Part shown: positions 1,083-38,140 of the stretch, piece by piece
How positions within the stretch are numbered: the stretch's first letter is position 1
Layout: each line of letters opens with the position of its first letter
Source: Oscillospiraceae bacterium
Lineage (GTDB): Bacteria > Bacillota > Clostridia > Oscillospirales > Oscillospiraceae
Direction: 5' to 3'
DNA: 64,000 nucleotides
NCBI GenBank assembly: GCA_017469115.1
Contig: JAFUGY010000099.1
Location: 12,079-76,078 of the forward strand
Notes under the pieces: model-generated
Seen by the model: only the letters and a program-made list of their open reading frames with translations
What the model was told of the DNA's origin: nothing
Databases searched by the model: none
Made by a program: the position numbers and the translations under genes

Positions 1083-1823
1083 TTATTGTTGAGAGCGTTT
1101 CTTCAGGAATAGTTCAAATAAAACCAGCACGATGACGATGAGAATCCCGCGTGCAAACAGAGCAGTTTGTCTGCCGTGAGTAAAGATTGCATTCATCATA
1201 CTCATGAATAATGCAATATCCAGCCCGAGGATATAGGGCAGCGGTTTGTGGTTACCGAGCAGTTTTTTAATCGGTTTGGCTCTAACGAAAAAGGGAAGAA
1301 AAACTGCAGCCAGCCCAAACAGGGAAGAACTGGCAGCAATCCAGAACCAGCTTCCATGGGTGTAGAGGCATATTACACCCAGCAATACCACAAGGCTGGC
1401 GCAAAAAGAGCAGAACATCCAGAACAGCTTATCTTCATGAACAATAATCGGCACAATGGTCAGGGAAGCTGCCACACAGAGTGAAGCCAATACGATGAAA
1501 AACCAGCCGGGTGTTGCCCCAAAAACAAAGTTGAGATACAAACAAACCAGAATTGGAATCATAAAGGAGCCAGAGATGGCTGACCCCACGGCAGCAGACC
1601 GCCGTTTGAATTGCCTGATACCGTATTCGATTACTTCATTTTTCTCATTGTGAAGATTGGTTTCAATTTCAGAACTCTGGAGCCTGTGCAGATAATCCTG
1701 GCAATCCGGACACTCCCGGAGATGCTCATCCACTGCTTCCCGGCTTTTTTCGCTGCAGGCGTTATCGGTATAGAGCGGCAGGAGATCTCTGATAACAGCA
1801 CAATCAAATTTCATTTCAGTCAC
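1083..1823 (-). CDS. membrane anti-sigma factor (zf-HC2 type)
   Basis: 246-aa ORF overlapping the upstream sigma gene by 8 nt. The N-terminus carries 'HLRECPDCQDYLHRL' (zinc-finger anti-sigma signature), followed by about six hydrophobic helices. Confidence 0.75.
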   Translation of the reverse strand: MTEMKFDCAVIRDLLPLYTDNACSEKSREAVDEHLRECPDCQDYLHRLQSSEIETNLHNEKNEVIEYGIRQFKRRSAAVGSAISGSFMIPILVCLYLNFVFGATPGWFFIVLASLCVAASLTIVPIIVHEDKLFWMFCSFCASLVVLLGVICLYTHGSWFWIAASSSLFGLAAVFLPFFVRAKPIKKLLGNHKPLPYILGLDIALFMSMMNAIFTHGRQTALFARGILIVIVLVLFELFLKKRSQQ

Positions 1824-2325
1824 GCATCCTTTCCTGTAATTTGAGCCTGGCGCGGTGATAAGTGACCCTCGCCCAGTTTTCGGTTTTGCTGAAGATCATT
1901 CCGATCTCCCGAAAACTCAATTCACCAAACACTCTCAGCTCGAATACTTCCCGGTATGGCTCTTCCAGATGATGGAGTGCCAGATGAATCCGAAAAGAGC
2001 TGTCCCGATCGGCCGTAGCCTGTTCGAGGGTATCTCCCGCTTCGGGCAGTTCTTCCGGAAACGGTTCATTTCTGCTCTGACGGCGTTTTTCATCCAGAAA
2101 GCAGTTACGCGCAATAGCACAGAGCCACGTTACTTCATCGGACTCTCCCCGGAAATCCTTGCTCCTGGAAAAAGCCCGAAAGAACGTTTCCTGTGTAATC
2201 TCCTCTGCATCTGAGCGATTTCCCGCCAACGTCATTACATAGGAAAACACCTTCATATAATAGGTTTCATAGATTTTTTCGCTGTTGTTCAGGGCCACAT
2301 TCTCACCTCCTTTTGTCATACTCAT
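1816..2325 (-). CDS. ECF-type RNA polymerase sigma-70 family factor
   Basis: Region 2 ('AEEITQETFFRAF') and region 4 HTH ('LSFREIGMIFSKTENWARVTYHRARLKL') are present. The longest ORF starts at 2325. The in-frame GTG at 2298 has a much better SD (AAGGAGGTG, 7-nt spacer) and fits the ECF promoter at 2330-2357. Confidence 0.85.
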   Translation of the reverse strand: MSMTKGGENVALNNSEKIYETYYMKVFSYVMTLAGNRSDAEEITQETFFRAFSRSKDFRGESDEVTWLCAIARNCFLDEKRRQSRNEPFPEELPEAGDTLEQATADRDSSFRIHLALHHLEEPYREVFELRVFGELSFREIGMIFSKTENWARVTYHRARLKLQERMRD

Positions 2326-2329
2326 AGAT

Positions 2330-2357
2330 TAGACGGAGAGAAAAGGTTTTCGTTACA
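2330..2357 (-). promoter_or_regulatory. ECF-type autoregulatory promoter candidate (TGTAAC-N16-CGTCTA)
   Basis: Minus strand reads TGTAAC gaaaaccttttctctc CGTCTA immediately upstream of the sigma gene. This resembles the AAC / CGT(C) ECF promoter architecture. Confidence 0.5.
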
Positions 2358-2545
2358 GGAAAAAATAAAATTTCTCAGAATTTCATTTTACAAGGATAAA
2401 AACGTAAGAAATGCCTTGCAAGGTATCCTTTCGTCCAGTACAATAGGAGAACAAACGGGCACCTGTTTCATACGGGTTCTTGACATCGATAAAAACGGGA
2501 ATAAATTTGGAAAAGCAGAAAAGGATGCTTTGAAAGGAGAAAGAA

Positions 2546-3184
2546 ATGGCATTTGATTTCAAAAAAGAATATAAAGAATTCTACATGCCGAAAAACACGC
2601 CCGGAATTGTAACGGTGCCACCCATGAACTATATCGCCGTTCGCGGGCAGGGCGATCCGAATCTGGAGGATGGTGCCTATAAACAGTCCATCGGGTTGCT
2701 GTACGGTATTGCATTTACCATCAAGATGAGCAAGATGGGCGATCACTGCATTGAGGGTTATTTTGACTATGTGGTTCCCCCGCTGGAAGGTTTCTGGTGG
2801 CAGGACGGTGTATTCGGGATTGACTACACGCATAAAGAGCAGTTCCGGTGGATCTCTGTAATCCGCCTGCCGGATTTTGTGACCGGGGATGATTTCGAAT
2901 GGGCAGTGGAAGAAGCTACCAGGAAAAAGAAGACAGACTTTTCAAAAGTGGAGTTTCTGCATTATGACGAGGGGCTGTGCGTTCAATGCATGCATATCGG
3001 CCCATATGATGAGGAACCTGAGACCGTTTCCCGTATGCATGCTTACATGGAGCAGCAGGGTTATGTGCTGGACATCACCGCTGAGCGCTTGCACCATGAG
3101 ATCTATTTGAGCGATGCCAGAAAGACTGCTCCGGAGAAGTTGAAGACGGTGATTCGCCACCCGATCAGGAGACCTGAAGCATGA
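2546..3184 (+). CDS. GyrI-like small-molecule-binding domain protein
   Basis: 212-aa ORF with AAAGGAG SD. The N-terminal 'FDFKKEYKEFYMPKNTPGIVTVPPMNYIAVRGQGDPN' and the later 'CVQCMHIGPYDEEPETV' are typical of GyrI-like/effector-binding proteins. Confidence 0.65.
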   Translation: MAFDFKKEYKEFYMPKNTPGIVTVPPMNYIAVRGQGDPNLEDGAYKQSIGLLYGIAFTIKMSKMGDHCIEGYFDYVVPPLEGFWWQDGVFGIDYTHKEQFRWISVIRLPDFVTGDDFEWAVEEATRKKKTDFSKVEFLHYDEGLCVQCMHIGPYDEEPETVSRMHAYMEQQGYVLDITAERLHHEIYLSDARKTAPEKLKTVIRHPIRRPEA

Positions 3185-4008
3185 GGGAAAGTATTTTTGA
3201 AACCCGATGTGGCGCAATTCATTACTGGGTGAATGATGGCTTTCCGGAAAACGGCATAACACTCATTTTTCTGCCGGGGCTGACTGCAGACCACCGCCTT
3301 TTTGACAAGCAGATGGAATATTTTGCGAAGAAGGTTCGTGTGTTTGTTTGGGATGCCCCAGGGCACGCTGCTTCCTGGCCTTTTGATTTTTCCTTTAACC
3401 TCATGGACAAAGCCAGCTGGCTGAATGAGATTTTCAGAAAGGAGCAGATCCGTAATCCCGTTATCATCGGGCAATCCATGGGAGGCTATGTCGGGCAGGC
3501 TTATTCACAGATGTTCCCGGATAAACTGCGAGGGTTCATCTCGATTGATTCAGCTCCTCTGCAAAGAGAATACGTGACGGCTGCAGAAATCTGGCTGCTG
3601 AAACGGATGGAGCCGGTTTATCGACACTATCCATGGAAGTGGCTTTTGCAATCCGGGACGAATGGTGTGGCTACCACTGAATATGGCAGACAGCTGATGC
3701 ATGATATTATGATGGTGTACGATGGTGATCAGGAACGATATGCAAAGATATCCGGCCATGGTTTCCGCATGTTAGCGGAAGCAATGGAAGCGGATCTGCC
3801 TTATGAACTGAAATGCCCGGCGTTGTTGATTTGCGGGGAAAAAGACCGTGCCGGTTCCTGCATTCGCTACAACAAAGCATGGCATAAGAAAACCGGAATT
3901 CCCATCCAATGGATCAGAAATGCAGGCCACAATTCCAATACCGATCAACCGGAGACAGTGAATTCTCTGATAGAACAATTTTTGGTACAGCTTTCCATGG
4001 ATACCTGA
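3181..4008 (+). CDS. alpha/beta-fold hydrolase
   Basis: 275-aa ORF overlapping the previous gene by 4 nt. It has 'FLPGLTADHRLF', the nucleophile elbow 'GQSMGG' and a C-terminal 'NAGHNSNTDQPE' His region. Confidence 0.8.
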   Translation: MRESIFETRCGAIHYWVNDGFPENGITLIFLPGLTADHRLFDKQMEYFAKKVRVFVWDAPGHAASWPFDFSFNLMDKASWLNEIFRKEQIRNPVIIGQSMGGYVGQAYSQMFPDKLRGFISIDSAPLQREYVTAAEIWLLKRMEPVYRHYPWKWLLQSGTNGVATTEYGRQLMHDIMMVYDGDQERYAKISGHGFRMLAEAMEADLPYELKCPALLICGEKDRAGSCIRYNKAWHKKTGIPIQWIRNAGHNSNTDQPETVNSLIEQFLVQLSMDT

Positions 4009-4037
4009 AAGTGACGCTTATCTTTACATAAAAACAG

Positions 4038-4079
4038 CAGCAACACCGTTTGGCCGAGTATGGTTCAGAGGTGTTGCTG
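4038..4079 (-). terminator. intrinsic terminator after the lyase pseudogene / end of ABC operon
   Basis: 10-bp stem (cagcaacacc / ggtgttgctg) with a 22-nt loop. On the minus strand it is followed by CTGTTTTTAT. Confidence 0.45.
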
Positions 4080-4122
4080 TTGTGCTATCCCCGCAACGAG
4101 GCAGATGCAGCGGCATCCGCGT

Positions 4123-5067
4123 TCATTTAACGGAAGGAGATGTTGCTTTGATTTGTTTCACAAGATCCAGCCCGATGGCTTCCGTTTCATCCAGTTCCAA
4201 CAGGCTGCGGACAAGGAACTCCGCTTCCTCTTCTGTGAAGTTGGTAAATGGGCGTCTTGCATATCCGGCGGGTATGCCTGCACACCGTAGCCATAGTTTC
4301 AAGCATGCCATCATGCTGCCGGATTTTACTCCCAACATGATAATCTGTAAGGCTTTCCGCTGCAGGATAGAAGCTGTCTGCACATCGGAATTTTTGACAG
4401 CTTTCCAGATCTTCAAGTACAGGTCAGGGATGCAGTTGTAGAACGATCCTATGATTCCATCGACACCAAGTGCTATGTTGGAAGAGCCAAGCTCGTCACA
4501 TCCACCGTAGATCTGAAAATCAGGTTTGCAGGCATCGCGAATCTGTGTGACCTCATAGAGCGCTGTCCCGGTATACTTTACGCCCTTTACGTTTTCAATT
4601 TAGGATAATCGCTCAATCATGCCAACAGTCATCATTCCGGCGAGAGGAATATTATAAACAATCATGGGCAGATCTGTAGCTTCAGCAATATCCCGATAAT
4701 AATTGAAAATCTGCTCCTCGTTAAATTTGAAGTAAAAAGGCGGAACACTGGAGATACCTGCGGCGCCTACACTTTTGGCGTGTTCAGCCAGAGCAATGGA
4801 TTCTCTCGTTGAAATTGCCCCTACATGAACGACAACCGGCAAAGCCTCGCCGACTTCATCCATGACGATTTCAACCAGACGTTTCCGCTCCTCAGAGTTC
4901 ATCAAAAATGCTTCACCGGTCGAGCCGGTAAGGTAGAGTCCACCAATCTCATAACGCATGAGATGGCGAATGAATGCTCTGGTGTCTTGCTCGTTGAGAT
5001 TCTCGTTCTTATCGAATACAGAAAGAACTGCCGGGATAACACCCTTAAAATCACGAATTGTTTTCAT
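4123..5067 (-). pseudogene. N-acetylneuraminate lyase / dihydrodipicolinate synthase (DapA/NanA) family gene interrupted by an in-frame TAA
   Basis: One reading frame of 314 codons. The N-terminal part contains 'GLYLTGSTGE' and 'YNIP'. A TAA at 4600-4602 is followed in the same frame by 'IENVKGVKYTGTAL...' (Schiff-base Lys motif GVKYT) through to the C-terminus. The start ATG overlaps the upstream stop (ATGA). Confidence 0.8.
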
Positions 5068-6101
5068 TTGGATCTCTCCGCTTTGATTCCTTTTGCTTCC
5101 AGTGCCGCCTTGACCTTGTGACAGGAGACGAAGTGGCTTACTCCGTTGATGATATATTCTTCCAAAATCGGCCGCTCTGTTTTGCATTGTTCGGCACAAT
5201 CAGGACACCTCGGATGAAATGTGCAACCGGAGGGCGGATTGGCTGGAGATGGTACATCCCCCTGAAGCGGAATACGTTTTTTCTTCTTTGTGGGGTCTGC
5301 AATGGGAATAGCGCTGAGCAAGGCTTTTGTATAAGGATGCAGAGTGTTGGCAAATAATTCTTCTGATGTTGTGAGCTCTACAATTCTGCCAAGATACATG
5401 ACGGCAATCCGATCGGCAAGATATTCTACCACCGAAAGATCATGAGTAATGAAGATATAGGTCAGCTTCCGCTCTTCTTTCAGTTTGTTGAGAAGCTTTA
5501 GAACTTGTGCTTGTATGGAAACATCCAACGCAGAGACAGCCTCATCACAGATAATCAGTTCAGGATCAACAGAAAGAGCTCTTGCAATGCCGATTCTCTG
5601 CCGCTGACCACCGGAAAATTCATTGGGGTAGCGCGTCATGTAATCGCGCGGGAGATTGACGTCTTCCAGCAGTTTACCGATCTTTTCTATACGCTCTTTT
5701 TTATCTTTGATACCAAATTTAATAAGAGGATCTTCCAAAGAACCAAATATGGTAAAAGCGGGGTTCAGAGAGGAGTATGGATCCTGAAATACGATCTGAA
5801 TTTTTTTCCTGGCATTATCGAGTTCTGTACGGGAAAGTTTTCGTAGATCCTTGTATCCATCTTCAAACTTGTACTCCATGCTGCCATCTGTAACCGGCAC
5901 TAACTGAAGGATGGATTTTCCAAGGCTCGATTTCCCGCAGCCCGATTCCCCGACGAGGCCAAGAGTCTCTCCCCGATAAACATCAAGGCTGATATCATCG
6001 ACAGCTTTTACATAGCCTACTGTTTTTTTCAGCACGCCTTTTTTGATTGGAAAATATGTTTTTGCGTTTCTGACTTTCAGAAGTATTTCTTTATTTTCCA
6101 T
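5064..6101 (-). CDS. oligopeptide/dipeptide-type ABC transporter ATP-binding protein (OppF/DppF-like)
   Basis: Walker A 'GESGCGKSS', signature 'FSGGQRQRIGIARAL', Walker B 'LIICDEAVSALD', and the C-terminal Opp-type extension 'HPYTKALL...CTFHPRCP'. Confidence 0.9.
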   Translation of the reverse strand: MENKEILLKVRNAKTYFPIKKGVLKKTVGYVKAVDDISLDVYRGETLGLVGESGCGKSSLGKSILQLVPVTDGSMEYKFEDGYKDLRKLSRTELDNARKKIQIVFQDPYSSLNPAFTIFGSLEDPLIKFGIKDKKERIEKIGKLLEDVNLPRDYMTRYPNEFSGGQRQRIGIARALSVDPELIICDEAVSALDVSIQAQVLKLLNKLKEERKLTYIFITHDLSVVEYLADRIAVMYLGRIVELTTSEELFANTLHPYTKALLSAIPIADPTKKKKRIPLQGDVPSPANPPSGCTFHPRCPDCAEQCKTERPILEEYIINGVSHFVSCHKVKAALEAKGIKAERSK

Positions 6102-33141: not shown

Positions 33142-34353
33142 GTGAAAGATCTGAAGCACCTAATCTTTTTTGAGAATCTACTTCAGGAAGCAAATAACGA
33201 GCTTGTCCGCAAAGGCAAGGAGGAAGGGCTCCGTGCCATCGGCTACACCTGTTATTTTATGCCTGAAGTTCTGCTCGACCTGCCCGGTTGCTTCTCCGTG
33301 CGTCTGCGTGCACCGCGCTGCACCTCGCCGGACATCGCAACCTACTATCTGTCATCCCGCGTCTGCCATTATGCCCGTTCCCTGATGGAGCGCGCCCTGG
33401 AAGGCGGCTTTAATTTCCTGGATGCGCAGATGGCCACCGAGACGTGCACCGCAACCTGCCGCTTCCAGGAGCATTTGCAGCAAAAGCATCTGGATACCGT
33501 GCAGGACATGCAGATTATTGAGAATCCCGACTTTTTTGTCAGCTTCAGTGATGTTCCGTTCAAAAACACGGAACTCAGTTATGAGCATTTCCGGAAGCAG
33601 CTTCGTGCCCATGTGCTCGATGAACTGACAGCTCATTTCGGAATTGACACTTCGGATGAAGCAATTCTCAAGGCTGTCGAGCAGCATAACGAGGTCTGCA
33701 GGCTCATCAATGAAATCGGCGATTACCGCAAGCTGGAGAATCCGACGATTACCGGCTATGAATTTGCCGTGATCCAGCTCTGCTCCCTGACCTGCCCGAA
33801 GCACCTGATTCTTCCTTATCTGCGTGAAACGGCCGAGCAGCTGAAAACCCGTGAGCCGGACGACAAAAAGCAGTTCCGCTGCAAGGTCGTTCTCTGCGGT
33901 TCCGAGAATGACGATCCCGATTTTGTCAAGCTCATCGAAAGCTGCGGTGCCCTCGTCGTGTGCGACAGGTATTGCTACGGCGCGGTGGAATCCCGTGTCC
34001 CCATCGAAATCAAAGAAGGCCAGGACCCGCTGGATGCCATTGCCCGCCACTATCTGCTTACCAGCAACTGCCCGCGCTTTATGCCGCAGGATGAAATGCG
34101 TGGCCGGAAAAAGCGCCTTGCAGAGCTCTGCAAAGAGTACCATGCCGATGGCCTGATTGTTGCTTCCAACAAGTTCTGCGAGTACTGGAGCTATGAGCGC
34201 GTCATTGACACGGTTGTCATGCGTCGTGACTACGGCATCCCGGTATGCTCCATTGAAAAAGAGTATATCAATACGGCTTCCGGCCAGCTGCGTACGCGTT
34301 TCCAGGCTTTCGTTGAAAGTGTTGAACTGAAACAGATCAAGGAGGACAAGTAA
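33142..34353 (+). CDS. 2-hydroxyacyl-CoA dehydratase / benzoyl-CoA reductase family subunit (HgdB/D-component-like)
   Basis: 403 aa with a GTG start preceded by GGAGGGAG. It contains 'AIGYTCYFMPEVLL' and 'ADGLIVASNKFCEYWSYE', typical of the HGD-D family. Confidence 0.7.
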   Translation: MKDLKHLIFFENLLQEANNELVRKGKEEGLRAIGYTCYFMPEVLLDLPGCFSVRLRAPRCTSPDIATYYLSSRVCHYARSLMERALEGGFNFLDAQMATETCTATCRFQEHLQQKHLDTVQDMQIIENPDFFVSFSDVPFKNTELSYEHFRKQLRAHVLDELTAHFGIDTSDEAILKAVEQHNEVCRLINEIGDYRKLENPTITGYEFAVIQLCSLTCPKHLILPYLRETAEQLKTREPDDKKQFRCKVVLCGSENDDPDFVKLIESCGALVVCDRYCYGAVESRVPIEIKEGQDPLDAIARHYLLTSNCPRFMPQDEMRGRKKRLAELCKEYHADGLIVASNKFCEYWSYERVIDTVVMRRDYGIPVCSIEKEYINTASGQLRTRFQAFVESVELKQIKEDK

Positions 34354-34354
34354 G

Positions 34355-35962
34355 ATGATCGACAGGAAAAAAGTCAAAAAAGCCCTTCGCGATTTCTGGT
34401 ACGGTAAACCCCACGGAGAGCGTCGGCTGGGAGAAATCCTGGAGGACAAAACCGGCCTTTATAAACACAGAGAATGGCGCGGCGTAAAAGATACAAGCTA
34501 TTACTTCTGGAATATCTGGTGCTATAACTACTTCCAGATGGTGATGGACATTATGAAGAACGGCGGTCCCATCGTCTTTGCAAAAGGCCTCTGGCGCTAT
34601 CGCTGGGTTGGGCAGACCTATCTTCCGGTTCTTCACTGGTTCGATCGCGGCCTCCAGGGCCTCCGCGGCGAAGCGATGAAGGCCTCCGCCTGGCATTACC
34701 GTGCCATGGTTGCCACAACAATTCGCCAGTTCCAGAGAATGTTTGTCTGCGATGCAAAAATCAACGGCGGCAAAATCAACGAGCAGCATGAACACACCAT
34801 CGCCATCAATGAGACGGTTTGGGGCGGCATCTTCTATCCCTGGGATGGAAAGCTCGTCTCCGTCCCGATGGAAATGATCCCTTACTTCGTCACCTGCCAT
34901 GTCAATTCCCATACGGTGCTCAATTACATCGATGCCGTCCAGTCCATCGGCCTCCCGGGCGACCCGTGCCCGATGTGCCAGGCGGAATCCGGCCTCTTTG
35001 TTCTCGATGATATGCCGGATTATGCCAAAGCCATGGTTACCTGTAATGAGGCGTGCGATGCTTCCGTCGCAACCTCCATCCTGCAGGACTGGTTTTTTGA
35101 CAAACCCCTCTTTGCCCTTCCCATGCCGATGCAGTTCGATGATCCTCTGGTCAAAGAAAACTGCATGAAGGAAATTGAGCAGTGCTGGCGCTTTATCGAG
35201 CAGCAGTACGGCATCCCCTTCAATTGGGAAAAGCTGAAAGAGAAGATTGAGCAGCAGAATGAGCTTCAGCGTTTTGAATGGGAAAAATGGGATGTTGCCG
35301 CGCACACGAACAACTATCCGATCAACGGCGTTGCGCAGGCTCTCTACCGCATTTATCAGACGCAGTACGGCGATTGGGAAATCTGGCATCAGGTGGACAA
35401 GAAGGTCCGCAAGATTATGGAAAAGTGTGTGCAGAAGAATATCAACACCTTCCCGCAGACGCGCCACAGAGTGATTGCCTGGTCCTGTGCTCCGCTGTAT
35501 TATTCCAACTGGTGCACCTGGGCTTATAACTGCTGGGGCCTGAATGTTGTCATCAATATGGACTCTCTGATGTTCGACATGACCATCCGTACCGACACCT
35601 ATGATCACGCCCTGGAAGACATGGCCACCTATCATATGTGGGCGCCGATGCGCCGCATGGCTGTCGGCGGCATGAACCACATCTTCGAGCTCTGGGAGAA
35701 TATGGAAAAGTTCAACTGCGACATGGTTGCCATGTACGACCAGCTGCAGTGCAAAGGCATGCAGGGCGTCCACGGTTTGTTCGAAGACGAGTTCCGCCGC
35801 AGAAATATCAACGCATTCTGGCTGCCCCATGCCCTGCCTGACTGCAGAACCGTTTCCCGTGCCGAAATCCGCAATGCCATCAATGACTATATGACGACTG
35901 TCATGCATGAAGAGCCGCTGGATCCCTCTCTTCTTGATTTTGACGATTCCATGACATGGTAA
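34355..35962 (+). CDS. 2-hydroxyacyl-CoA dehydratase family subunit with ~140-aa N-terminal extension
   Basis: 535 aa with AGGAGG SD, starting 2 nt after the previous stop. It contains 'LPGDPCPMCQAESG', 'VTCNEACDAS', 'VIAWSCAPLYY' and 'CDMVAMYDQLQCKG', as in HGD-D family large subunits. Confidence 0.65.
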   Translation: MIDRKKVKKALRDFWYGKPHGERRLGEILEDKTGLYKHREWRGVKDTSYYFWNIWCYNYFQMVMDIMKNGGPIVFAKGLWRYRWVGQTYLPVLHWFDRGLQGLRGEAMKASAWHYRAMVATTIRQFQRMFVCDAKINGGKINEQHEHTIAINETVWGGIFYPWDGKLVSVPMEMIPYFVTCHVNSHTVLNYIDAVQSIGLPGDPCPMCQAESGLFVLDDMPDYAKAMVTCNEACDASVATSILQDWFFDKPLFALPMPMQFDDPLVKENCMKEIEQCWRFIEQQYGIPFNWEKLKEKIEQQNELQRFEWEKWDVAAHTNNYPINGVAQALYRIYQTQYGDWEIWHQVDKKVRKIMEKCVQKNINTFPQTRHRVIAWSCAPLYYSNWCTWAYNCWGLNVVINMDSLMFDMTIRTDTYDHALEDMATYHMWAPMRRMAVGGMNHIFELWENMEKFNCDMVAMYDQLQCKGMQGVHGLFEDEFRRRNINAFWLPHALPDCRTVSRAEIRNAINDYMTTVMHEEPLDPSLLDFDDSMTW

Positions 35963-35976
35963 AGGAGGACAGAGTA

Positions 35977-36213
35977 ATGAAAAAAGGTGGATGCTCTCTG
36001 GGGAAGATGCTGTTGAAACTGTTCCTGAAGCTGTTCGGGATCTGCTTCGCGGCAATTGCCGTGCTGTTCACGATCTTCTTCTTTGACCTTGACGGAAAAC
36101 TTCTCTTCTATGTGGTTGAGCCCTTCCTGAAGAAGCATTATGACGACATGGAAAGAAAAGACGTCCTGAAAGATTTGTATGATGTAGATAAATATCCCAA
36201 ACGTGAGTTTTAA
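35977..36213 (+). CDS. small single-pass membrane protein of unknown function
   Basis: 78 aa with a strong SD (AAGGAGG, 8-nt spacer). One TM helix 'LFGICFAAIAVLFTIFFF' is followed by a charged tail, and a terminator comes directly after the stop. Confidence 0.55.
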   Translation: MKKGGCSLGKMLLKLFLKLFGICFAAIAVLFTIFFFDLDGKLLFYVVEPFLKKHYDDMERKDVLKDLYDVDKYPKREF

Positions 36214-36217
36214 GTGA

Positions 36218-36247
36218 GATCTGCCCGGCTGTTACCAGCCGGGCAGA
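36218..36247 (+). terminator. intrinsic terminator closing the dehydratase-like operon
   Basis: 13-bp perfect stem atctgcccggctg / cagccgggcagat with loop ttac, followed by ttgcacttttctttt. Confidence 0.8.
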
Positions 36248-36318
36248 TTTGCACTTTTCTTTTATCCTGTTTTACGGTATAATGACAACAGAATACCATA
36301 CCGGAGGGAAAACAGAAC

Positions 36319-36969
36319 ATGAAGCAGTATTTTGAAATTGTAGATGTGACAGCAAGAGAAGTGGTCGGATTGAAGTTTGAGCCGACTGTTGAGGTGGAGA
36401 TTACCCTGGATGACGAAACGGTTGGCAGGGCATCTGTTCCGTCCGGAATGAAGAATGCGCGGGAAGTCTCCATTGCCGTTGACAACGTGAATATGGAAAT
36501 TTCAGAAGCGCTGGTCGCAATGAATGCTCTGGATCAGCCCTCAATTGACAGGCTCCTTCTGGAGATCGACGGGACGGAGTCTACCTCCCGCTTGGGAGCA
36601 AATGCGCTGATGGCTGTTTCTCTTGCCTGTGCAAAGGCGGCAGCATCGTCATCCGGGCTCTCGCTCTATAATTATATCGGGGGCGTTAACGCAAAGATGA
36701 TTCCCAAAATCCGGGAAGAGGGGGATGCCATCTGTCTTGAAGATTTTGCTACACTCACGCAATTTCTCAATGCGGTTGCCGCGAAGAAAAAGACCGGCAA
36801 GCCCATCGTCCTTTCTGCTGGAAAGGGAGAGGCAGAAGATGAAGCAATGGCCGACCTTGCTGTTGCCGTGAATGCCGAAGGCCTCATCACCTCCTCACCG
36901 ACGGTCTATAATGAACTGATGAGGATTGAAGAAGAGTTGTTTGACGTGCCGGAGTATCCGGAAGCCTGA
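36319..36969 (+). CDS. enolase-like protein lacking most of the catalytic barrel (N-terminal domain fused to the last ~85 residues)
   Basis: 216 aa. 'IVDVTAREV', 'LGANALMAVSLACAKAAA' and 'LYNYIGG' match the enolase N-domain. 'GEAEDEAMADLAVAVNA' and 'YNELMRIEEEL' match the enolase C-terminus. The SGASTG loop and the metal-ligand/catalytic segments are absent. Confidence 0.6.
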   Translation: MKQYFEIVDVTAREVVGLKFEPTVEVEITLDDETVGRASVPSGMKNAREVSIAVDNVNMEISEALVAMNALDQPSIDRLLLEIDGTESTSRLGANALMAVSLACAKAAASSSGLSLYNYIGGVNAKMIPKIREEGDAICLEDFATLTQFLNAVAAKKKTGKPIVLSAGKGEAEDEAMADLAVAVNAEGLITSSPTVYNELMRIEEELFDVPEYPEA

Positions 36970-36982
36970 GGCGTCTTTTGCA

Positions 36983-38140
36983 ATGACAGCACAGAAGCGA
37001 AATAACAGGAACTGCAGAGCGATAAAGCTGTTTACAGGCATCCTGATGCTTGCTCTTTTTGCAGGCATTCTGACGGCATGCGGCGTGAAAAAGATGCAGG
37101 TTTCTTCCATTACCTCTGGTGAAGTTCAGCTGAGAGGCGGTAAAATACAGGAAGTCTCTTTATCTGCTGAAGAAACCCGTGCCATGTCAAACTACATGTT
37201 GGCAGGCCGGTTCGTTCACAGCGGAAAAACCCTATATGGGTCCCGGCATGACGAGGCAGGCGACCCTTATCTCGCCCGCATGAAGTTTACCGCCGGGGAA
37301 AAGGGCATGTACGTCCGTGAAACGGAGACGATCGAGCAAAAAGTCGATGCCCAATACCTGATCCTCCGGGATTCTACGCTCTATTATCTGCGAAGGGAAC
37401 TCTCATCCGAGAACACTTCCATTGTCCGTGTTGCAGCACCTGCTGGATCGGAAGCAAAACCGGAAGTTCTTTACGCTGGCCCCTGTGATTTCCTCTTCGG
37501 GAAAGGGGACAGGCTTTATTTTACCGATGCCTCAAACCACCTCCTTTCCATGGCGCTTGACGGTAGTGATGTGCAGCCGGTTGTTTCCGACAAGGCTATC
37601 TATTATCCTTATCTCCTGACCGGGGATCTCCTCCTCTACCAGGATGATGCAGACGGCGAGAGCCTCCATATGCGGTATCTTCCGACGGGGTTTGACATGA
37701 GGATTGCACAAGGCCGCGTCTGCTGCTATGTTGTGAGAGGCAGTGAAGTCTGGTTTGTTCGTGCGGATGAACAGGGCAGTGAAAAATGCAGGCTCTGTCG
37801 GGCAGACCTTAATGAATTTTTGCACTCGTTTGATCCAACCGCACGGCCTGACGCCTCCTTTGTGTTTTCCATAGAAGAGTCAGGCAATTATATGGGGCCG
37901 TTGTTTTCCATCAATGCCGATCATATCAATGCCTCCAATTATCAGGTCGCAAATCTTTCAGATTGGCAATCCCTTTCCGATAATGCCTGGCAGGTTGGCT
38001 ATCGGGCGGCATGCCAGTATGTGGCGGAAGATTTTGAACTGTTCTATGATTACAATGAGGAAGGCCTCATCACCGATATGCTCTTTTACGAGCCGAACCT
38101 GAAACGAAAAGGGTTTATTGAGATCTATAAATATTCCTGA
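36983..38140 (+). CDS. lipoprotein with beta-propeller-like repeats (DUF5050-like)
   Basis: Basic N-region followed by lipobox 'GILTAC'. Recurrent 'LYY/LYF..D....L..(M)..DGS' segments are present, for example 'LYFTDASNHLLSMALDGSDVQPV'. Confidence 0.5.
   Translation: MTAQKRNNRNCRAIKLFTGILMLALFAGILTACGVKKMQVSSITSGEVQLRGGKIQEVSLSAEETRAMSNYMLAGRFVHSGKTLYGSRHDEAGDPYLARMKFTAGEKGMYVRETETIEQKVDAQYLILRDSTLYYLRRELSSENTSIVRVAAPAGSEAKPEVLYAGPCDFLFGKGDRLYFTDASNHLLSMALDGSDVQPVVSDKAIYYPYLLTGDLLLYQDDADGESLHMRYLPTGFDMRIAQGRVCCYVVRGSEVWFVRADEQGSEKCRLCRADLNEFLHSFDPTARPDASFVFSIEESGNYMGPLFSINADHINASNYQVANLSDWQSLSDNAWQVGYRAACQYVAEDFELFYDYNEEGLITDMLFYEPNLKRKGFIEIYKYS

Follow-up and report, generated by a model that had tools for sequence, protein, structure and literature searches.

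Can an enolase be kept by selection after most of its catalytic barrel has gone, and if so, for what? The locus that raises this question lies in a 64,000-nucleotide stretch of DNA from an Oscillospiraceae bacterium (GenBank assembly GCA_017469115.1, contig JAFUGY010000099.1, positions 12,079 to 76,078 of the forward strand; hereafter, the window) and encodes a 216-residue protein, here termed mini-enolase. An initial annotation, made from the letters of the window, had recognized both ends of enolase in this protein and had proposed that it is a maintained non-catalytic derivative rather than a recent pseudogene. On the basis of the sequence comparisons and the structural model described here, we conclude that mini-enolase is a real, selected, folded, and non-catalytic enolase derivative, not a pseudogene, and that it belongs to the pseudoenzymes derived from glycolytic enzymes. 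Enolase is a textbook moonlighting enzyme; because its gene is usually essential, what it does outside glycolysis is difficult to study apart from catalysis.

Both ends of enolase are retained without the catalytic apparatus

The enolase N-terminal domain is represented end to end in mini-enolase, with Pfam Enolase_N matching residues 7 to 120 over profile positions 1 to 131 of 131 (E = 7e-32). Enolase_C matched residues 141 to 213 over profile positions 209 to 287 of 296 only (E = 1e-8), and the alignments to the two ends of enolase in the initial annotation were thus both upheld. The score against TIGR01060 (enolase, phosphopyruvate hydratase) was 147.9 bits and did not reach the curated cut-off of 300. 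In alignments to solved enolases, a 17-residue deletion directly after VPSGM takes out the SGASTG loop (loop L1), in agreement with the earlier claim that this catalytic loop is lost. Further on, the alignment leaps from residue 143 to residue 339 of the Bacillus subtilis enzyme, corresponding to the loss of ∼195 residues, and the missing stretch is where enolase has its three Mg-binding carboxylates (D246, E295, and D320 in yeast numbering) and its general acid, a Glu (E211). The first description of the protein had placed the Mg ligands together with the acid/base Glu and Lys among roughly 190 missing residues; this was correct for the ligands and the acid Glu and incorrect for the base, as the column of the catalytic-base Lys still aligns and is occupied by C139. 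The His, Arg, and Ser columns of SHRSGETED also still align, being substituted by A167, G168, and K169, as does the Lys column of QIKTG, which is substituted by I190. At columns 139, 167, 168, 169, and 190, the enolase residue did not occur in any of the 54 family members aligned, and several of these columns are variable. Because the region of the Mg ligands and acid Glu and loop L1 are deleted and the remaining catalytic residues are replaced in every member, mini-enolase cannot carry out the enolase reaction. It combines homology to an enzyme family with the loss of essential catalytic residues, as is characteristic of a pseudoenzyme.

The two retained pieces are predicted to pack as in the enzyme

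An AlphaFold2 model computed from the family alignment with no templates had a mean predicted local distance difference test score (pLDDT) of 93.7 and a predicted template modeling score of 0.90, with disorder in the last six residues only. When the model was compared with the PDB by using Foldseek, the best 50 matches listed were all enolases, with query-normalized template modeling (TM) scores of 0.82 to 0.89 (0.86 to 0.89 for the top ones). The Foldseek alignments cover ∼410 target columns, and the mutual placement of the two retained pieces is therefore that of the enzyme, at high model confidence. According to DSSP, the N-terminal domain contains the three strands and four helices of the enolase capping domain and is followed by parallel strands at residues 130 to 132, 138 to 139, 164 to 166, and 188 to 190, of which the first is a remnant of barrel strand β1 and the others are β6 to β8 with their helices retained. 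In place of the complete eight-stranded barrel of enolase, the model has four short parallel strands, and it depicts mini-enolase as an enolase N-domain packed on a four-stranded half barrel (the β1 remnant plus β6 to β8). The family members of 269 to 289 residues still have β1, β2, and helix α5, and the model of a basal 289-residue member (pLDDT of 89) gave TM scores of ∼0.8 to enolases. A natural protein composed of the N-domain plus a half barrel bears on ideas of barrel evolution from half barrels.

The short form is a widespread family under purifying selection

Homologues with the same short architecture exist in abundance. A search limited to comparable lengths yielded more than 100 sequence clusters of 199 to 289 residues, ranging from 100% to ∼40% identity, and all of the clusters listed showed the same pattern of N-domain plus C-terminal piece. 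The sources were Oscillospiraceae, "Ruminococcaceae," and Eubacteriales metagenome-assembled genomes (MAGs) as well as ruminant and gut metagenomes. The nearest database sequence, P0001, is identical to mini-enolase at 215 of 216 residues, and an 85% identical protein, P0015, was present on 106 contigs. Alignment of 54 members revealed 28 invariant and 33 nearly invariant columns located across both halves of the protein.

Ratios of nonsynonymous to synonymous substitution (dN/dS, calculated according to Nei-Gojobori) were 0.06 at a dS of 0.85 for the pair L004/L005 and 0.087 at a dS of 0.15 for the pair L032/L035; those of other close pairs were 0.03 to 0.055 with dS nearly saturated. The overall range of 0.03 to 0.09 indicates strong purifying selection across species, as is required of a pseudoenzyme, and both halves are constrained (∼0.02 for the N-terminal part and 0.05 to 0.14 for the C-terminal part). 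Among syntenic relatives, mini-enolase is 85 to 87% identical, in comparison to 66 to 73% for the neighboring YlmH and 65 to 71% for the neighboring lipoprotein. The reading frame is intact in the window and in all homologues read, and the frame disruption or neutral evolution that marks a pseudogene was not encountered. The homologues, the selection acting on them, and the packing of the two pieces all bear out the proposal of a maintained non-catalytic derivative.

Reduced forms descend from Oscillospiraceae-type enolases

Trees were built on the 216 columns shared by the reduced forms and full-length enolases. All 24 reduced forms constituted one clade (ultrafast bootstrap of 98 and Shimodaira-Hasegawa-like approximate likelihood ratio test, SH-aLRT, of 96; SH-aLRT of 99 in the other tree), which is nested within the Oscillospiraceae-type enolases with the common N terminus MKQYFEIVDV. 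This topology points to a single origin of the reduced forms within that enolase type. The branches of the reduced clade are 10 to 50 times longer than those of enolases, and identity to the parental type is 65 to 70% in the N-domain and 40 to 44% in the C-terminal part, so the earlier observation that divergence extends over the whole length holds. The branching order runs from a 394-residue dead form (P0121) through members of 269 to 289, 240, and 221 residues to a crown of 199 to 221 residues that includes the window protein. P0121 (L114, 1093 to 2277), which is sister to all reduced forms and was found on a single 4.2-kb contig, retains the barrel and the three metal ligands and is without the base Lys, the acid Glu, the His and Arg of SHRS, and the loop Ser. 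The simplest reading of this order is that the active site would have died first and the barrel would then have been progressively deleted, an unusually clear stepwise series from a 394-residue dead enzyme to a 200-residue core. An exhaustive profile search of 1.8 billion representatives provided, besides P0121, no more than approximately six clusters of reduced forms at the 50% level, and the related loci in species genomes were mostly ordinary 430-residue enolases that match residues 1 to 129 only.

We also considered whether mini-enolase is the in situ remnant of an enolase at its locus and set this aside as weakly supported, adjacency to eno being found in only one of ∼70 full-length loci (L031). 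In that locus (1616 to 5711), the genes after the orthologous HGD-HGD-small block encode first a BcrAD/BadFG activator ATPase and then a full-length enolase of the parental type. The activator ATPase is absent between the HGD block and mini-enolase in the window, and the HGD operon lies apart from eno in the same-genus genomes G004 and G137. A 325-residue enolase-like protein of an unrelated lineage, P0244, has an internal deletion and the altered motifs SHSLGETED and GQIKIG; enolase may have been reduced independently in this case.

Catalytic enolase in the genomes that carry mini-enolase

A six-frame search of the genome to which the window belongs (G000) located one intact enolase, encoded by a separate gene on contig C9 (426 residues, 667 bits against TIGR01060). 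This enzyme is 64% identical to Oscillospiraceae-type enolases and is not of the parental type; its best solved relative is the enzyme from Anaerostipes (Lachnospiraceae; PDB 3UJ2, 714 bits). The 5.1-kb segment that contains eno (C9, 330 to 5452; locus L107) is represented by 95 nucleotides at the contiguous syntenic site of a close relative, G151. From these comparisons, the C9 enolase looks like an acquired replacement. The six-frame TIGR01060 search of G000 gave no separate barrel piece, and the idea of a split enolase, whose barrel core would be encoded at another site, was rejected.

PGK was present in all seven carrier genomes, three of which (G151, G152, and G157) were without full-length eno. 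Another enolase type, 62 to 64% identical to the parental type, was found in G154 and G155, a C9-type enolase cut by the contig end was found in G153, and the parental type was found in none of the seven. Conversely, two genomes labeled as the same genus possess the parental-type enolase and no mini-enolase. Mini-enolase was detected in one of the 151 sampled genomes of the family, that of the window itself, and its distribution is therefore narrow and patchy. Enolase was absent from 29 of the 109 high-quality genomes (≥90% complete) of the GTDB family of the window by six-frame TIGR01060 searches that recovered 14 of 14 controls, and enolase-negative rumen bacteria were noted in the Hungate1000 paper (PMC6118326). 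Loss of enolase thus seems common in this family, and the mini-enolase result sharpens the puzzle posed by the quarter or so of its high-quality genomes that are without any enolase. In rumen and gut Oscillospiraceae with no other enolase-like gene, mini-enolase would lead metabolic reconstructions to close glycolysis wrongly.

Residues at subunit contacts are preferentially conserved

In Staphylococcus aureus enolase, the dimerization elements are β1 to β3, α5, and α12, and the dimer-dimer contacts of the octamer involve Y133, Y135 to N140, K142, L350, T351, F354, D355, E358, K362, and N389 (PMC4667285). We mapped these contacts through the B. subtilis enzyme, for which the residue types match everywhere except at K362 (Arg in B. 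subtilis). The octamer contacts correspond to residues 117 to 126 (Y-x-Y-I-G-G-V-N-x-K), 146 to 158 (L-T-x-x-L-D...), and N185 of mini-enolase, and the mean entropy of the mapped contact positions was 0.76 bits versus 1.32 bits overall. Whereas 68 of 179 parentally conserved positions are still conserved in the reduced forms, the fraction was 13 of 18 for the interface and 55 of 161 for the other parentally conserved positions (Fisher p = 0.002). Among the 54 aligned members, there is no variation at R13, E25, N198, and R202 and almost none at E205; these five residues presumably correspond to the ion pairs R8-E417 and E20-R414 between subunits of the yeast enzyme, for which a literature search gave no confirmation. 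The DSRGN loop of enolase touches helix α5 of the partner subunit (Gly17-Thr185' bond; PMC4667285), and this loop, strictly conserved otherwise, varies exactly in those forms that are without α5. Column comparison of the reduced forms and parental enolases revealed no conserved site specific to the mini-enolases apart from A99, G168, L65, and E205. The lack of new conserved residues suggests retention of a subset of ancestral properties and fits subfunctionalization. A new active site was tried as an explanation and rejected, as the same comparison showed no new conserved polar cluster.

Mini-enolase is a pseudoenzyme descended from the native Oscillospiraceae-type enolase, in which selection would preserve ancestral non-catalytic properties, above all the subunit-association surfaces. 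The dimer surface would be kept in strands β1 to β3 and the C-terminal helix, and the dimer-dimer (octamer-type) surface would be kept in the YxYIGGxN linker, the TLTxxLD helix, and the AVNA turn. A moonlighting role of the enzyme would be continued, e.g., that of a hub for protein interactions with RNA-processing or envelope-associated partners. We put about even weight on the reading that mini-enolase associates with itself as a scaffold or binds partners as a module and, whether or not a catalytic enolase is present, carries on a role of enolase outside glycolysis. More speculative, and in our opinion doubtful as it stands, is a separation of function in which enolase catalysis was no longer needed, or a foreign enolase took it over, and the native gene was whittled to a minimal module for an ancient second job of enolase, that of an oligomeric hub (e.g., for RNase Y/degradosome-type partners). 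In this scenario, the half barrel may in addition pair with a second copy, which would rebuild a pseudo-barrel. If this were true, the family would delimit the part of enolase responsible for its non-glycolytic role in Firmicutes, which has long been debated. Two recent cryo-EM entries of bacterial enolase in non-glycolytic complexes, PDB 9no4 and 9no2 (with the anti-CRISPR AcrIIIA2 plus Csm, and with RibD), are a reminder that enolase surfaces serve as binding platforms.

Several points weigh against the scaffold reading. Helix α5, one of the three dimerization elements, is deleted in the 216-residue forms, and P0001 has Val in place of the elsewhere invariant E25. The interface list is small. 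The conserved "interface" residues could be kept simply for fold stability, an example being the YNYIGG linker that ties the domains together. The gene context varies across the family, indicating no partner, and the carriers without eno are MAGs that are possibly incomplete. The Val of P0001 may have arisen through an error in sequencing, or else variation is tolerated at this putative salt-bridge position.

Alternative roles for mini-enolase

The same contact surfaces would be expected in a regulatory or "poison" subunit, in which case mini-enolase would co-assemble with the full-length enolase of the cell and tune its activity, oligomeric state, or recruitment into complexes. Both kinds of contact surface are preferentially conserved, as this requires, and G000, G153, G154, and G155 do carry a full-length eno in addition to mini-enolase. 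The two genes are never adjacent, however, and the full-length enzymes present are of a different type (59 to 64% identical to the parental type), so that compatibility of their interfaces with mini-enolase is not a given. Because three of the seven carriers are without full-length enolase, with the syntenic site of G151 being contiguous and free of eno, we downgraded a hetero-oligomer as the main role and regard it as quite unlikely. The gene context suggests a role as an envelope or pilus accessory, in which mini-enolase would either assist assembly from the cytoplasm or be exported non-classically to become part of the surface. The stop codon of the mini or midi gene overlaps the start of a secreted transglutaminase-like gene in L089 and L109, and the gap is 31 nucleotides in L090, in lineages that are only ∼40 to 60% identical; the transglutaminase-like gene heads a T2SSF/DUF4860/small-pilin-like/T2SSE cluster (L089, 5001 to 10394; L090, 5001 to 10378; L109, 4001 to 8870) with which, or with the DUF5050 lipoprotein, mini-enolase would act. 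The lipoprotein gene is the next gene in the window and its relatives and closes the same cluster in L089, a Flg_new_2 surface protein is encoded 22 nucleotides upstream of the member gene in L110, and surface-exposed enolase is well known in Firmicutes. Mini-enolase nevertheless has no signal peptide, the cluster is on a separate contig of G000 (C142, 15.6 to 20 kb), other members are found in unrelated operons, and the internal plasminogen-binding motif and C-terminal lysines of surface enolases presumably fall in the parts that are deleted or replaced here. We consider an envelope role unlikely.

Two further possibilities concern whether the remnant retains ligand binding or any function at all. 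A sensor in which the remnant binds 2-phosphoglycerate, phosphoenolpyruvate, or a related phospho-acid and reports glycolytic flux is very improbable. Of the residues that hold phosphate and carboxylate (the loop L1 Ser, the Arg and Ser of SHRS, both Lys residues, and the three metal ligands), none is left, each having been deleted or having given way to a small or hydrophobic residue; several of these columns are variable, and no new conserved polar cluster is present instead; the points in its favor are that the N-domain, which caps the active site of enolase, is well conserved and that the G-E-x-E-D of SHRSGETED partly survives as (G)ExED. A decaying paralogue, i.e., a functionless pseudogene with a chance open frame, could account for the patchy occurrence (one of 151 sampled family genomes, with two same-genus genomes lacking the gene) and for the very fast evolution relative to enolase. 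It is hardly credible in the face of an open frame of similar length in more than 100 clusters down to ∼40% identity, dN/dS values of 0.03 to 0.09 with synonymous sites saturated or nearly so, the confident fold prediction, the strong Shine-Dalgarno sequence and the placement of the gene after a terminator, and the 106 contigs with the 85% identical P0015.

Relation to known enolase derivatives

Mini-enolase resembles canonical enolase (TIGR01060; PDB 4A3R, 5BOE, and 3UJ2) in its N-domain, which is 65 to 70% identical to that of the Oscillospiraceae type, in its modeled structure (TM scores of 0.86 to 0.89), and in having the same residues at the subunit contacts. It differs in being without ∼195 barrel residues, loop L1, and the catalytic, metal-binding, and substrate-binding residues, in reaching half of the TIGR01060 cut-off, and in evolving 10 to 50 times faster. 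The score of mini-enolase against NF006223/PRK08350, an archaeal short enolase paralogue of 341 residues, was 86.1 bits, with a match to the N-domain only and a cut-off of 624 that was not reached. The NF006223 family may correspond to paralogues that Thermococci and Methanococci possess alongside a normal enolase; subfunctionalization has been proposed to have left these second enolases with an ancillary, non-glycolytic role (PMC4390880). In contrast to mini-enolase, these archaeal paralogues belong to another domain of life, are of independent origin and far less reduced, and lie within the ribosomal superoperon. A "truncated enolase" of rumen Butyrivibrio was reported among gene-loss stages in Lachnospiraceae, without evidence of conservation (PMC6118326). 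The setting is alike, in that rumen Clostridia are losing or shortening enolase in an environment where enolase-negative genomes are unusually common, whereas by its description the Butyrivibrio form differs from the mini-enolase family, an old and diversified group of Oscillospiraceae proteins on which purifying selection acts. MBP-1, an alternative translation product of human ENO1 that is truncated at the N terminus, is likewise a shortened enolase polypeptide without activity and acts by binding. It retains the barrel, whereas mini-enolase is the product of a separate gene that has kept the N-domain and lost the barrel core.

No model for the mini-enolase architecture was found in Pfam, NCBIfam, or PADLOC, and a full-text literature search on truncated, pseudo-, and non-catalytic enolases gave no description of the family, returning only the Butyrivibrio remark and the archaeal paralogues. 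The public names of family members are "hypothetical protein" or "enolase." The family shows what selection keeps after catalysis ends, namely, in addition to the N-domain, the residues at the subunit contacts and the final three β-α units, and mini-enolase provides a small, defined construct for direct tests of partners and assembly.

Organization of the mini-enolase gene and its neighborhoods

The features of the gene and its surroundings are compiled in Table 1. The junction at residues 130 to 138 has the highest column entropy of the protein in the family alignment (2.5 bits). A consensus promoter scan around the TATAAT sequence did not call a full promoter. The Shine-Dalgarno sequence, the candidate -10 box, and the terminator upstream are indirect signs that the protein may be produced. 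The gene had initially been assigned its own transcription unit following a terminator at 36218 to 36247; the terminator was borne out, but the unit probably includes a second gene. A terminator scan 3' of mini-enolase found none before the DUF5050 lipoprotein gene, whose ATG is located 13 nucleotides past the stop codon, and the transcription unit therefore probably runs on into that gene.

Table 1 Positions of the mini-enolase gene, its signals and segments, and adjoining genes in the window
Feature	Positions	Strand	Evidence
HGD-D-like pair and 85-residue membrane protein genes, directly upstream of mini-enolase	33142-36213		
Intrinsic terminator closing the upstream operon (HGD-D-like pair and 85-residue membrane protein)	36217-36250	+	15-bp stem with 9 G-C pairs, 4-nt loop, T-rich tail
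Candidate -10 box TATAAT, -35 weak	36278-36283	+	Seen by eye in the sequence
Shine-Dalgarno sequence GGAGGG, ATG 10 nt further on	36303-36308	+	Seen by eye in the sequence
Mini-enolase gene, 216 residues plus stop codon	36319-36969	+	Intact ATG-started open reading frame
Residues 1-129: enolase N-terminal domain minus the 17-residue catalytic loop L1, plus the conserved LYNYIGGVNAK linker	36319-36705	+	Pfam Enolase_N; gap after VPSGM; DSSP of the model; dN/dS ∼0.02
Residues 130-138: barrel strand β1 remnant (KIR) and variable junction, site of the ∼195-residue internal deletion	36706-36732	+	Alignment to full-length enolases; strand 130-132 in the model
Residues 139-208: last three barrel β-α units (β6-α6, β7-α7, β8-α8/α12)	36733-36942	+	Pfam Enolase_C profile 209-287; alignments; model; dN/dS 0.05-0.14
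Residues 209-216: acidic tail DVPEYPEA, predicted disordered	36943-36966	+	Conserved in the 215-221-residue subfamily; pLDDT <50 at 211-216
DUF5050 (β-propeller) lipoprotein gene, probably co-transcribed with mini-enolase	36983-38140	+	Pfam DUF5050; lipobox ...LTAC in the translation

Close relatives share the order ylmH (minus strand), two HGD-D-like genes, the 85-residue membrane protein gene, the terminator, mini-enolase, the DUF5050 lipoprotein gene, a CofE-like gene, and a PMT_2 gene (minus strand), and mini-enolase followed by the lipoprotein gene was also observed in relatives L004 to L006 and L084 to L086. L109 (840 to 3933), although deeply diverged (∼40% identity), has the HGD-HGD-small-mini order as well. 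No universal operon partner was identified among the eleven loci/contexts compared, the neighborhoods being recurrent but mutually different, and no partner can therefore be named. A PADLOC scan for defense systems provided no match for mini-enolase or its neighbors. Other members are located in a sugar/polyol-type aldolase-SDR-PHP-ADH operon or beside an H+-PPase. In L091 (1679 to 2929) and L092 (231 to 1357), genes for members of 240 and 202 residues, respectively, are followed by those for a 64- to 65-residue Cys-rich FeThRed_B-like protein and a thioredoxin, and this trio, with gaps of 15 nucleotides or an 8-nucleotide overlap, is an apparent three-gene operon.

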